From IMG/VR virus record IMGVR_UViG_3300005617_000004, positions 32,001 through 96,000 of that record: a DNA stretch of 64,000 nt. One strand, 5' to 3'. This DNA comes from a virus. The notes beneath the pieces are model-generated. The model was not told the origin of the DNA. It did no database searches and saw only the letters and a program-made list of their open reading frames with translations. Within the stretch, counting starts at the first letter, position 1; every line of letters begins with the position of its first letter. Below are positions 4,317 to 16,761 of the stretch, piece after piece. Both the position numbers and the translations under genes were made by a program.

Positions 4317-5150
4317 TCAGTTGAGGTAGGTCTCCATGTACTTGTTGGCGTCGGTCAGGTAGCCGTCCACACCGGCGAGGTCGTCGCTGGCGAGGTCGTC
4401 TTCCATGTCGCCGGTGCCCTGGTAGGCCTTGGCGTCGACGTAGCCGTCCACGCCGGCCATCTCGTCACCGTTGCCGGTGCCCTGGTAGGCGCGGGCATCG
4501 ACGTAGCCGCCGGTGCCCTGGTAGGCGCGGGCGTCAACGTAGCCGCCCAGGCCTTCCATGCCGTTCACCGGACCGCGGACCGCGGCAGCGGGCGCAGCGG
4601 CGACAGCCGCGGGGCCGACCATCGGTGTGCCGTACACGAGGCGGGCGATCATGCCCGGCATCACGAGCTCGACCATCGAGGCGACGCCGCCGCCGATCAG
4701 CAGCGACTTGCCGATGTCGCCCTTGATGAACTTGTTGGCGAGGTAGCCGATCGTGAAGGGGACCGCACCGCCGACGATGCGCTTGGCCCAGGGGTTGGAC
4801 AGGAAGGCGCCGGCGCCCACCATGTTGAGGGCAGGCACGATCACGCTGGAGGTGGCGATGCCACCGAGCGCGTAGGTGCCGACCGCGCCGCCCGCGGCGA
4901 ACGCCATGTGCTTGAGCTTGTTGCGGCCCTTGAAGACGGCGAGCGCCTCCTTGGGAGCGCGCTTCGCAGCGCTGATGTACTGGTTGATGACGCCCACGGG
5001 GTTTCTCCTTGAGGTGCGGTGCTTGCGCCGGCGAGGATTCGCCCGCGAGGTGGATGAACGACTGAGACGGCGGCCGCGCTTGCCACGACGCCCGGGGTTA
5101 CCGAGCAGGGCGAGATGCAGGCCAGGGTTGGACATCAGCATGAGGGGCAT
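4317..5150 (-). CDS. Putative virion membrane/core protein: Arg-rich NP N-terminus, three hydrophobic segments, acidic repeat tail
   Basis: 5 NP motifs, MEGLG, 3x GYVDA(R/K)AYQGTG. Confidence 0.8.
   Translation of the reverse strand: MPLMLMSNPGLHLALLGNPGRRGKRGRRLSRSSTSRANPRRRKHRTSRRNPVGVINQYISAAKRAPKEALAVFKGRNKLKHMAFAAGGAVGTYALGGIATSSVIVPALNMVGAGAFLSNPWAKRIVGGAVPFTIGYLANKFIKGDIGKSLLIGGGVASMVELVMPGMIARLVYGTPMVGPAAVAAAPAAAVRGPVNGMEGLGGYVDARAYQGTGGYVDARAYQGTGNGDEMAGVDGYVDAKAYQGTGDMEDDLASDDLAGVDGYLTDANKYMETYLN
4410..4544. repeat. Three 36-bp coding repeats (4410-4445, 4473-4508, 4509-4544)
   Basis: Encode GYVDA(R/K)AYQGTG. Confidence 0.9.
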
Positions 5151-5350
5151 CGAGAACCTTCAGCCCGTCGGGGCGAGTCTCAGATAAACCGCTATGCTGT
5201 CTGTCGGGCGGAGGCCATCAGGCCGTCGCGCAACTACATGCTGATGCGCATCACCCTACGCATCCGGGCGCTCGATGTCAAAACTATTTCGGAGAGTACA
5301 TGTTGCCCGACTTGGGCGAGATGCCGCACAAACACAACACGTACATGTAT

Positions 5351-5380
5351 TTGCAGTCGACTGTATATACGCGTATATAC
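5351..5380 (+). promoter_or_regulatory. Promoter overlapped by a perfect 18-bp palindromic operator
   Basis: TTGCAG-N17-TATATA; GTATATACGCGTATATAC at 5363-5380; ATG at 5387. Confidence 0.75.
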
Positions 5381-5386
5381 GGCAGC

Positions 5387-6349
5387 ATGGCCAAGAAACT
5401 CATCAGCCTGCGCATCGACCCTGGTCTCCATGACTGGTACCGCAACCGCGGCGCCGGATACCAGAACGAGATGGAGCAGGCACTGTTCACCTACAAGCGC
5501 GGCAACGCGCAGGAGCTCGCCACCATGCCTACCGACCTCGACGACTACGCTAAGAACAACCCCTGTGCCGTGTGCGGCGGTAAGGGAGTCAAGAAAGTAG
5601 GAAAGGGGAAGAAAGCCATACAGACGCCGTGCTCCAGCTGCCACGGGTCCGGCGGCCAGTCTTGGGAGTTGGTCGGGCAGGTGAACCCCAACTTCGGCAA
5701 GCCCGGCCAACCTTTCATCGTGTCGGTTGGCCAGGATGATGCGGAAAACGTGGAAGACGCCCCCGGCGCGGCAGGAGAGAAGACCGACGATGTCTTCGCC
5801 GGCACGTCACCTTTCTGCACCGTCAGGGACGCGAGGACGGGCAGCATTCGGCTGGAGCGCTCGTCGCAACCTCTGTACGACACCCAGCGCCAGGGCTCCA
5901 TCTACGACAAGCCGATGACCGCCCGTGAGTCGTATCGCGGTGCGCCGGACCCCATCGTGTTCTTCGCGACGCCCAACGGCCGCAGCGCGGCCCAGACCAA
6001 CCTCGGCACTGCTGGTCAGCTCAGCTGGCCCAAACGTTTTCATGTCCGCGCCGTACGGTTGCGGTTCTCCCACATCTGCGACTTGAGCGAAGCCTCCGTG
6101 ATGCTGCAGGTCGGCGAGAAGCTCTATCTGTCGATACCGGTCAAGAACATGGACCAGGAGCCCAACGACGAGCACACCAGCAAGAATCATGAGCTGCCGC
6201 CGCTGCGGTTCATCCACCGGCTGGCGATCCCGGTCTACATCCCGCCGGTCCAATATTTCGGCCTGACCCTGATCACCGGGTCGAAGCATCTCGGCGACGT
6301 GGTGGTCCGCGCCCAGCTCGACGGCCTGATGCTCAGGGAGATTGCGTAG
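5387..6349 (+). CDS. Fusion: BrnA-antitoxin-like RHH domain + CxxCxGxG zinc finger + QPLYD capsid-like domain
   Basis: KLISLRIDPGLHDWYRNRGAGYQ; CAVCGGKG...CSSCHGSG; C-terminal ~190 aa aligns with 3552-4121 (TAGQLSWPKRF, QVGEK, PPVQ, LREI). Confidence 0.8.
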   Translation: MAKKLISLRIDPGLHDWYRNRGAGYQNEMEQALFTYKRGNAQELATMPTDLDDYAKNNPCAVCGGKGVKKVGKGKKAIQTPCSSCHGSGGQSWELVGQVNPNFGKPGQPFIVSVGQDDAENVEDAPGAAGEKTDDVFAGTSPFCTVRDARTGSIRLERSSQPLYDTQRQGSIYDKPMTARESYRGAPDPIVFFATPNGRSAAQTNLGTAGQLSWPKRFHVRAVRLRFSHICDLSEASVMLQVGEKLYLSIPVKNMDQEPNDEHTSKNHELPPLRFIHRLAIPVYIPPVQYFGLTLITGSKHLGDVVVRAQLDGLMLREIA

Positions 6350-6599
6350 TCGTCCAGTCCTCGAGCTTGCCCCACACGTGCCACGCGCAGGGCGTGTAGG
6401 GGCAGACTATGGAGGGCGACACGGTGCCGTCGGCCCCGATGTCGTGGCCTTCTCCGTTCGGTCGCTTCAGAGACGCGCAGCCGCCGCACAGCGGGCATTT
6501 GATCGACACGTGGTCATTGCCGGCGACCCACCAGGAGCCGCGCGGCGCGCCAACACAACAGTTGTCGATGCTGCGGGGCAGCAGGACGGTGTCGACCAT
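6333..6599 (-). CDS. Small Cys/His metal-binding protein (DUF6527-like)
   Basis: CPLCG...TVSPSIVC...C.WH; ATG overlaps upstream stop. Confidence 0.6.
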   Translation of the reverse strand: MVDTVLLPRSIDNCCVGAPRGSWWVAGNDHVSIKCPLCGGCASLKRPNGEGHDIGADGTVSPSIVCPYTPCAWHVWGKLEDWTTTQSP

Positions 6600-15194: not shown

Positions 15195-15197
15195 GGG

Positions 15198-15545
15198 TTA
15201 CTTCTTGAAGATCAGGAAGCCGATGCCTGCAGCGACCGCGACGAGGCCGAGGTTCTTGCCGCTGAGCAGCGAACCGATGTCGAACGCGCCCATGCCGGGC
15301 ATGTAGCCGCCAGCCAGCGCGTCCTGGTACCCGACCTGCACTTCGGTCTGGTCCATGTCCTCGACGAGGCCCAGGCCGCTGAAGCCGGGCAGGAACTCAC
15401 CGCCGGCACGCGGCAGCTTGCGGGCCACCGGCGACCGCAGCCGACGATCGGCGCGGGGGTCCAGGTTCCGCGCCGCGGGCGCGCGCAGGTGCTTCACCTG
15501 CGGGGACGACAGACGGCGCGCAGGAGCGGCATTGATGGACTGCAT
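15198..15545 (-). CDS. Tail-anchored membrane protein
   Basis: FSGLG, MPGMG; C-terminal TM + KK. Confidence 0.75.
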   Translation of the reverse strand: MQSINAAPARRLSSPQVKHLRAPAARNLDPRADRRLRSPVARKLPRAGGEFLPGFSGLGLVEDMDQTEVQVGYQDALAGGYMPGMGAFDIGSLLSGKNLGLVAVAAGIGFLIFKK

Positions 15546-15572
15546 GGGGTTGATCCTGGACAGGGTTGCTGG

Positions 15573-15600
15573 AGGGTATGTCAGTTTGGCCGAAACTCAA
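15573..15600 (-). promoter_or_regulatory. Promoter
   Basis: TTGAGT-N16-TACCCT. Confidence 0.5.
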
Positions 15601-15609
15601 GCGTGCGCA

Positions 15610-16761
15610 TCAACGGAAGAACAGGAACGCGCCGATGGCGGCCGCGGTGCCGAGCAGGCCGGCAGCGCCGGTCGACTCGGCGGGCTTGCCCTGCGCCGTG
15701 TTGATGACGCCGGTAACCTGATCGCTGGAGGTGAACGCCGCGTCGACCATCTTGTCGCGGGCCTTGAGCTCCTGTGCGCGCTGGGCGAACTGCGGATCGC
15801 CGCGCAGCCCCTTGGCGATGTTGACCCGCACCGCCTCGTGGTACTCGGGGGTCGCGGTCATCGCCAGGGTTTTGTCGCGGAACTCATCCATGTCGCGCTT
15901 GGCGGCGGCGACCAGGGACCCGGTCTTGTTGCGGATCTCGTGCACCGCCTGCTGGCCGCTGAACGTCCGGCCGATGGCGTCGATGTCTTCGGCGAACATG
16001 TGGTACGGGTTCTGCAGCTTCTTCTCGAACATCAGGGCGACGCGCTTGCTGTTGCGGTCCCAGGCGTCGTTCCACTTCTTGGCCTTGGCTTCGCCCTTCT
16101 TGTCGCCGACCAGCCGCGCACCGGCAGCGCCGGTCTTCAGGACCGCGTCACCGACGACTTGCACCGACTTGGTCTGCGCCTTCGCGACGGTGCCGGTCAG
16201 GAACTTCTTGATACCCAGGGCGCCGAGCCCTTCGAGCAGCTGGCCGGACGCCGCCAGCTGCTCGGCAGCCGCGTACTCCTGCTCCCCCACCTGATTCTTG
16301 GCCGCTTGCACGGTGGCCTGCGTGCGGCGCCCGTAGCCTTGGATCTCGTCCTTGGCGGCCTCGATCATCTTGTGGATCTGCTTCTTGGCGATCGACCCAC
16401 CGACCAGGGTGCCGATGGCAATCAAGGCCGCCACGACCCAGCCGACGATGGGCACCACGCTGGCGGCGGTCGCTGCGGTCATGCCGGCCGCCATGGCGGC
16501 TCCGGTGGCGACCGCAACGCCCGCAGCGGTGTCGAACAGCACACCCGCCGCGACGCTGACCGCCATCTGGGCCACCGCCTGTTCGGTTGCGGCCTCGATC
16601 ATGCGCTTCTTGAGCAACGCCGCTTGGTCGTTCATGCTGGTCAGGGCCAGCTGCGGTTCCTGCGCGACCTCATCGGCACCCAAGAACTCCGGCTCGAGAT
16701 ACCGCCGGTAGCGCGGCAGCATCAGCGAACGGCCCGCGGGGTCGACGAGGTACTGCGGCAT
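15610..16761 (-). CDS. Helical membrane protein (possible DNA-entry/membrane-fusion protein)
   Basis: Long Ala-rich hydrophobic hairpin (VPIVGWVVAALIAIG), LEGLG, C-terminal TM. Confidence 0.75.
   Translation of the reverse strand: MPQYLVDPAGRSLMLPRYRRYLEPEFLGADEVAQEPQLALTSMNDQAALLKKRMIEAATEQAVAQMAVSVAAGVLFDTAAGVAVATGAAMAAGMTAATAASVVPIVGWVVAALIAIGTLVGGSIAKKQIHKMIEAAKDEIQGYGRRTQATVQAAKNQVGEQEYAAAEQLAASGQLLEGLGALGIKKFLTGTVAKAQTKSVQVVGDAVLKTGAAGARLVGDKKGEAKAKKWNDAWDRNSKRVALMFEKKLQNPYHMFAEDIDAIGRTFSGQQAVHEIRNKTGSLVAAAKRDMDEFRDKTLAMTATPEYHEAVRVNIAKGLRGDPQFAQRAQELKARDKMVDAAFTSSDQVTGVINTAQGKPAESTGAAGLLGTAAAIGAFLFFR

Follow-up and report, generated by a model that had tools for sequence, protein, structure and literature searches.

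The virus described here is uncultured and is represented by IMG/VR record IMGVR_UViG_3300005617_000004, which is 109,520 base pairs (bp) in length, has direct terminal repeats and a 64.7% G+C content, and is rated complete. We analysed bases 32001-96000 of this record, a stretch of 64,000 nucleotides (nt) referred to below as the window; positions are those of the window and features are on its minus strand (-) unless stated otherwise, with genes called using a third-position G+C filter. The virus apparently lacks a tail and infects bacteria. A virion-type gene block runs on the minus strand from approximately 17201 down to 3552 and encodes small and large proteins of unusual kind, 9 of 15 of which end with a single hydrophobic helix followed by a few basic residues. 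Seven membrane-anchored proteins share a hydrophobic-x-Gly-Leu/Met-Gly tag, and one of the seven is a cysteine-protease-like enzyme.

The 855-residue enzyme-bearing protein

The enzyme is part of an 855-amino acid (aa) tail-anchored protein encoded at 8757-11324 (-). From the N- to the C-terminus, it consists of a transglutaminase-fold domain, a middle part with disorder and helices, an acidic stretch of low complexity and a membrane helix. The domain (residues 11-190, positions 10755-11294) matches Pfam Transglut_core (PF01841) over residues 62-141 (score 26.3 bits, curated cut-off 23 bits, E 9.2e-6). In an AlphaFold2 (AF2) model of residues 1-400, residues 11-190 form a block with predicted local distance difference test (pLDDT) values of 94-98. 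The catalytic residues lie in three short motifs: Cys107 in GDCDD (11004-11006), His139 in SHVY (10908-10910) and Asp161 in ADP (10842-10844), in the Cys, His, Asp order of the transglutaminase-like superfamily. We are confident that residues 11-190 adopt a transglutaminase-core fold, and the Cys-His-Asp domain proposed when the DNA was read by sequence alone is borne out by the Pfam match, the AF2 model and the conserved triad. The fold leaves the chemistry open: a protease, a cell-wall isopeptidase or a cross-linker would all fit it.

Residues 1-200 of the 855-aa protein served as the query of an exhaustive HMMER search, which returned 2,389 proteins at E<0.001 and 74 homologue clusters at E<1e-30. 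Residues D85, E90, D106, C107, D108 and H139 are invariant in 79 sequences, D-P is the consensus at position 161, and the Cys..His pair is kept in 71 of 71 homologues. Inteins are present in 15 homologue clusters (among them P0002, P0017, P0018, P0027-P0029, P0032, P0046, P0050, P0051, P0055, P0063, P0068 and P0070), directly before the catalytic Cys, which is the +1 residue. These inserts of approximately 130 to 330 aa read G-D-C-L-A-x-G-T-R-L-L-T ... V-V-V-H-N, then C-D-D, and match the Pfam Intein_splicing and Hint families; the gene in the window has no intein. The position of these inteins fits an active site that is both essential and conserved.

The whole genome, searched in all six frames at E values up to 10, gave no match to Peptidase_C5 or Peptidase_C48, and these adenain/Ulp1 searches together with the Pfam and PHROG matches listed gave no other peptidase-like domain in the genome. 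A complex prediction of the enzyme domain (residues 1-186) with residues 78-135 of the tagged protein encoded at 8085 had a score of 0.02, which is no evidence either way.

Three tag sites are present in the 855-aa protein. Site A (LAGLG, residues 187-191, 10752-10766) lies at the C-terminal edge of the enzyme domain, where the pLDDT of the model falls from 94 (residues 181-190) to 49 (residues 191-200). Site B (LFGLG within GFLFGLGD, residues 391-395, 10140-10154) lies at the end of a modelled helical hairpin (residues 327-392). Site C is a variant, IEGLT (residues 829-833), followed by the C-terminal helix (residues 834-852) and a basic end; together these occupy 8769-8840. All three recur in homologues: a tag is found 35-80 residues past the catalytic His in 42 of 71, approximately 230-260 residues past this His in most (often as GFMPG(M/F)G), and, in strict form, no more than 45 residues ahead of the helix in 28 of the 57 homologues that are anchored. 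The sequence-only reading had placed LAGLG immediately after the enzyme domain. Order does end there in this protein, and the 42 homologues agree, but the site reads LAGF-N in the related lineages L002 and L005. Compared with the AF2 model, the positions of the tags thus mark module borders: tags stand at order-to-disorder transitions and between modules, and their positions are kept while their flanks diverge.

Other tagged proteins

Immediately downstream of the 855-aa protein gene, 8085-8753 encodes a 222-aa tail-anchored protein in which a conserved N-terminal domain precedes two tags, GFMPGMGD (8460-8474; MPGMG at residue 94) and GFVPGMGA (8382-8396; VPGMG at residue 120), separated by a basic spacer. 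G-F-x-P-G-x near residue 92 is kept in 28 of 30 homologues, and the long form in this family is (A)H-x-G-F-(M/V/I)-P-G-(M/L/F)-G. Family members (P0329-P0358) carry one to three tandem G-(F/Y)-x-P-G-M-G units with basic spacers of 15-25 residues, so that cutting, if it occurs, would yield short basic peptides.

The 115-aa tail-anchored protein at 15198-15545 also has two tags, FSGLG (residue 55, 15369-15383) and MPGMG (residue 82, 15288-15302), the second approximately 8 residues ahead of the membrane helix. Both sites are kept in relatives, which have gained two more (LAGLGD and SGLGA) within an insertion. In the 383-aa membrane protein at 15610-16761, LEGLG (residues 176-180, 16222-16236) is loosely conserved, and relatives gain LAGLGD or SGLGD near the N-terminus.

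The 277-aa protein at 4317-5150 consists, in order, of a basic N-terminus, a hydrophobic core, MEGLG (residues 198-202, 4545-4559), three GYVDA(R/K)AYQGTG repeats and an acidic tail. Among 60 homologues the site has the form GPVNG(M/L)-x-G(L/I)-(G/D/A/S)-G-YVDA. The repeats themselves (residues 203-250) are conserved in approximately 60 homologues, for example as Y-V-D-S-P-A-Y-Q-G-T-G.

A 174-aa Pro-rich tail-anchored protein (6599-7123) begins with MFAIEGLGD, its tag occupying 7100-7114. The longest open reading frame (ORF) here starts at a GTG at 7207 and overlaps the upstream gene. The most likely start is the ATG at 7123, which lies downstream of the stop codon of the upstream gene and of a GAGAGG ribosome-binding site and would make the tag N-terminal. 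This tag is not conserved in positional analogues in relatives. Finally, a 139-aa tail-anchored protein (7631-8050) has a degenerate QFDGLD ahead of its helix; its homologues read LAGLGD (L001) and MPGMGD (L005).

Enrichment and conservation of the tag

All of the motifs named in the sequence-only reading are present in translated ORFs. They include the variants YQGTG (three copies), MAGVDG and LAGVDG in the 4317 gene, FDGLD in the 7631 gene and LMGLS in the 8757 gene, as well as LQGLG in the 40494 gene and MVGGLG in the 1760-2203 gene, both outside the block. A further match in the 39864 gene is probably due to chance, being inside a membrane helix.

That reading implied that the motif would be concentrated in structural genes and kept in homologues, and both expectations held. 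In the 15 block proteins (3,740 aa, 4317-17201), [MLIFV]xG[LM]G occurs 9 times against 0.9 expected from composition-preserving residue shuffles, none of 2,000 of which reached 9; the other 118 ORFs (24,125 aa) have 5 matches against 3.8 expected. Five syntenic relatives were found in IMG/VR, representing three distinct lineages, and the syntenic blocks of these lineages have 7 matches against 1.3 expected, 12 against 2.4 and 8 against 1.9. Site positions are kept in homologues down to approximately 45% identity. In alignments of the relatives, tags are conserved islands amid divergent linkers, and new tags appear inside lineage-specific insertions. One N-terminal MLLGLGN, in the L017 homologue of the protein encoded at 7126, was set aside as a chance look-alike, as the aligned residues elsewhere are not a tag.

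The tag was also derived independently of the original choice of motif by counting all GxG tripeptides in 71 near-full-length metagenomic homologues of the 855-aa protein. GLG (151 observed against 32.7 expected, 4.6-fold), GMG (55 against 13.9, 4.0-fold) and GFG (16 against 8.1, 2.0-fold) are over-represented, every other GxG is at most 1.2 times its expectation, and L, V, M or I make up 78% of residues at position two before the first Gly. These counts define the tag as aliphatic-x-G-(L/M/F)-G. The residue after it is most commonly Ala, Asp or Glu (46% together).

Gly (9.5%), Ala (13.1%) and Leu (7.0%) are abundant in the block proteins, and in a GC-rich genome such a composition might by itself generate the motif as a functionless by-product. 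This is very improbable: the shuffles keep the composition and give a tenth of the observed matches, the excess among GxG tripeptides is restricted to three of them, and the positions of the sites are retained between diverged homologues. As judged from these comparisons of sequence, the tag is a genuine short linear motif that is under selection and is shared by several tail-anchored virion-block proteins.

Three further loci of similar G+C content were found through a capsid-like protein of the block, which is 51-63% identical in them (L017, L018 and L020), and both the gene order and the tagged proteins recur there; a fourth locus, L019 (47% G+C), was not included in this comparison as its ORF set could not be called. 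In the L002/P0003/P0014/P0017 lineage, the central residue of the tag is Phe at several sites at once, site A included, and Phe at this position is rare in other lineages. This concerted shift suggests that the tag has a single common reader.

Virion context and neighbouring genes

The capsid-like protein is encoded by the last gene of the block (3552-4121, -). It is 189 aa in length and is the candidate major capsid protein, putatively a single jelly roll; AF2 models it as an all-beta structure. It is the best conserved protein of the block, with 117 homologues on contigs of up to 115 kb. One of these homologues (P0205) comes from an 83-kb contig that was binned with the genome of a cyanobacterium (Okeania sp.) and, together with the G+C content of L019, indicates that the clade spans hosts of very different composition.

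Encoded at 11333-14494 (-) are four very Arg-rich proteins with repeated (S/T)-N-P-R-R-R-R stretches, which are candidates for core proteins that condense DNA. Two of their genes, 13994 and 13346, correspond to a single fused ORF in relative L001 (L001:2092-3153). An antisense gene lies inside the block at 5300-6349 (+); its product has a BrnA-like N-terminus with a DnaJ-type zinc finger and a C-terminal part with 36% identity to the L001 orthologue of the capsid-like protein. Beyond the window, at genome positions 98967-99482 (-; L008:3468-3983), is a gene for a 171-aa protein that starts with a beta-grasp domain of the ThiS/ubiquitin-like type (E 4e-7).

The virus was compared with tailless internal-membrane viruses whose capsid proteins are single jelly rolls (SSIP-1, P23-77, SH1/HHIV-2 and SPV1 types). 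For 134 ORFs, the Pfam and PHROG matches listed were to families for replication, methylases, glycosyltransferases and toxin-antitoxin-like systems, with no terminase, portal, HK97 capsid or tail families among them; approximately 60% of ORFs have no family match. An FtsK/HerA packaging ATPase was sought by a Walker A scan only, no family search being run, and a single classical motif was found in a coding-like ORF. The 520-aa protein concerned is probably the UvrD-type helicase.

Proposed function of the tag

Our tentative explanation, which we consider the best single one although it falls short of an even chance, is that the tags are processing sites cut by the transglutaminase-fold domain of the 855-aa protein. 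The sites would lie on tail-anchored inner-membrane or core proteins of a tailless jelly-roll virus, and the cutter, the N-terminal domain with the triad Cys107-His139-Asp161, would be held on the same membrane face as its substrates by the C-terminal anchor of the 855-aa protein. A cut at site A would free the enzyme domain, and cuts at sites B and C would part the modules of the protein. In the 8085 and 15198 proteins, cuts would free the N-terminal domains and short basic spacer peptides from their anchors, and in the 4317 protein a cut would detach the acidic repeat tail. We infer the cutting itself, the bond cut and the identity of the cutter from what was observed directly: the motif, its enrichment, conservation and positions, the fold and the triad.

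In favour of processing are the format of the site (only four positions are constrained, in the pattern of the adenain site), the confinement of its enrichment to the block, its position at borders, the new copies in insertions and the concerted shift to Phe. The conserved triad and the inteins at the catalytic Cys also speak for it, and the searches described above gave no competing peptidase family. LapG, a sequence-specific protease of this fold, is also among the structural neighbours of the domain.

Several observations weigh against it. Neighbours of equal rank include cross-linking transglutaminases, PNGase and the phage pseudomurein isopeptidases PeiP and PeiW, and this range of activities is compatible with more than one chemistry. 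In SSIP-1, gp34 has the same enzyme-plus-anchor architecture, and the strict tag is not enriched among SSIP-1 virion genes. Most anchored homologues at 36-45% identity (280-600 aa) have no strict tag; five at this level of identity have one 75-88 residues past the Cys, where some others have L-x-G-hydrophobic. The combination of enzyme and anchor is older and more widespread than the strict tag; either the core role of the enzyme may have come before the tag, or the preference of the enzyme for a site may drift. Even in one close lineage site A departs from the strict form, the many ORFs with no family match leave room for an unrecognized protease, and tandem tags with basic spacers would suit a multivalent docking motif equally well. 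The sequence-only reading had described the domain as a maturation protease that releases itself at LAGLG; the tag, the fold, the conserved triad and the tag at the domain end still speak for this, but the strict link between tag and enzyme is weakened by SSIP-1 and the distant homologues.

Docking is a realistic but less probable explanation that ranks close behind processing. The tag would then bind membrane-anchored proteins to a repeated partner, for which the inside of the jelly-roll capsid lattice or a further membrane protein would be the most plausible choice. The enzyme would have a separate job, candidates being the cutting of host cell-wall peptide cross-links at entry, as by PeiP and PeiW in archaeal viruses, and the cross-linking of virion proteins. 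The variable tandem copy number and basic spacers of the 8085 family are consistent with docking, as is the location of tags a few residues from anchors, where a membrane-to-capsid tether would be expected. An anchored enzyme without the strict tag, as in the distant homologues and in SSIP-1 (the annotation of gp34 is that of a structural protein), also fits docking, and PeiP, PNGase and transglutaminases match the fold as well as LapG does. However, few constrained positions with two Gly residues are the typical format of a cysteine-protease site, and in most homologues one tag coincides with the point where the enzyme domain ends. With neither Gln nor Lys, the tag does not qualify as a site of cross-linking. 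The genome also encodes another candidate for a cell-wall enzyme, although it could serve lysis rather than entry: the 213-aa protein at 48133-48774 (-), which has a hydrophobic helix at its N-terminus and a 3D domain of the kind present in MltA-type cell-wall lytic enzymes, and is likely to be a lysis or entry enzyme.

It is unlikely that the tags are cut by a host enzyme or by an unrecognized viral one, for example the 161-aa protein at 7126-7611 (-). The large share of ORFs with no family match would accommodate such an enzyme, and the strict tag and the transglutaminase-fold domain do not always co-occur. The 7126-7611 protein is among the best conserved in the block (51-75% identity in four lineages and 31% in L020, the most distant), with invariant residues H63, H67, W113, H115, F-G-D-T-G-H (117-122; D119, H122) and D138, but it has no match in Pfam, NCBIfam, PDB or Atlas, and a different protease would leave the tag right after the transglutaminase-fold domain unexplained. 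F-G-D-T-G-H does not make it an aspartic protease, as D-T-G lies only approximately 40 residues from the C-terminus, unlike the retropepsin layout; it may be an unrecognized metal-dependent virion-block enzyme.

Two other proteins were considered in the search for peptidases. A 146-aa protein at 56255-56695 (-) matches phrog_11227, annotated as "protease" (E 3e-50), but was rejected: it has no Pfam or NCBIfam match and no visible catalytic motif, and by eye looks like a stomatin/prohibitin-type membrane protein. A Clp_N domain is present in a separate 148-aa protein at 50039-50485 (-), in which no catalytic motif was seen. Readings of the tag as a signal-peptidase, rhomboid or membrane-interface site were also rejected: there is no preceding hydrophobic region, the P4 and P1 residues do not fit, and the variable position is often acidic.

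An improbable variant of processing, which we rate below cutting by another protease, is that the enzyme is sortase-like. It would cut hydrophobic-x-Gly-Leu/Met | Gly through a thioester and pass the carboxyl group to an amine of a capsid lysine or of phosphatidylethanolamine. Acyl transfer is the native chemistry of the transglutaminase fold, and several C-termini consist of a tag, a membrane helix and a basic end, mimicking cellular sorting signals. If this were the case, formerly anchored proteins would be covalently stitched to the capsid or to lipid during maturation.

Maturation proteases with short shared sites are found in adenoviruses, poxviruses, asfarviruses and tailed phages. Should the anchored enzyme recognize the tag and cut there, these bacterial viruses would have a convergent, adenovirus-like maturation system, and the transglutaminase fold would gain a new biochemical role in viruses. 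The tag would also offer an easy criterion, based on sequence, by which virion-internal proteins could be annotated throughout a large uncultured clade, which comprises 74 enzyme clusters (E<1e-30) on contigs of 80-115 kb.

Comparison with known systems

No description of a tag combined with an anchored enzyme was found in the literature searched, and a review of membrane-containing bacteriophages does not contain the words protease or proteolytic (PMC6356626). The only match to the 855-aa protein in the phage collection is gp34 of SSIP-1 (31.8% identity over 106 residues), which likewise has a transglutaminase-like domain and a C-terminal membrane helix. At 304 aa, however, gp34 does not have the long middle region, and a BLAST comparison against 26 kb of SSIP-1 that holds its virion genes identified no shared protein besides gp34. 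SSIP-1 has an internal membrane and reportedly encodes major capsid proteins of two types (PMC6356626).

The catalytic domain of LapG, one of the bacterial transglutaminase-like cysteine proteinases (BTLCP), is structurally similar to the domain of the 855-aa protein, which scores only 14.9 bits against the LapG NCBIfam model (cut-off 320). LapG is periplasmic and cuts an adhesin at a di-alanine site. In contrast, the 855-aa protein has no N-terminal signal peptide or hydrophobic segment, its only such helix being C-terminal (residues 834-852), and its motif is different. PeiW and PeiP of archaeal viruses also differ, as they are lysins acting on cell-wall isopeptide bonds rather than membrane-anchored virion proteins, and no shared tag is known to be linked to them.

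In phage T4, internal proteins carry capsid-targeting sequences that are cut at (L/I)xE by a serine prohead protease. The system proposed here is similar in that a short tag on unrelated virion-internal proteins would be read by a single viral enzyme. T4 is a tailed phage, however, and its tags are N-terminal leaders, whereas those described here are mostly internal or just before an anchor.

Adenain, the adenovirus protease, belongs to clan CE and has the catalytic order His, Glu, Cys. The order here is Cys107, His139, Asp161, on a transglutaminase/papain-like core. The enzyme of the 855-aa protein is also anchored in a membrane and its host is bacterial, whereas adenain slides on DNA. The type-1 cleavage site of adenain is (M/I/L)XGX-G, with (M/I/L)XGG-X as the other form (PMC7998265), and the L/V/M/I-x-G-L/M-G tag shares this format with the adenain (MEROPS C5) site; the resemblance is one of format only. 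The organization of the two systems is nonetheless comparable: in adenovirus, as here, sites are common to several core and membrane-lytic precursors of one virion, highly basic proteins are encoded alongside, and the capsid proteins are of the jelly-roll type, in the present virus putatively (PMC7998265).

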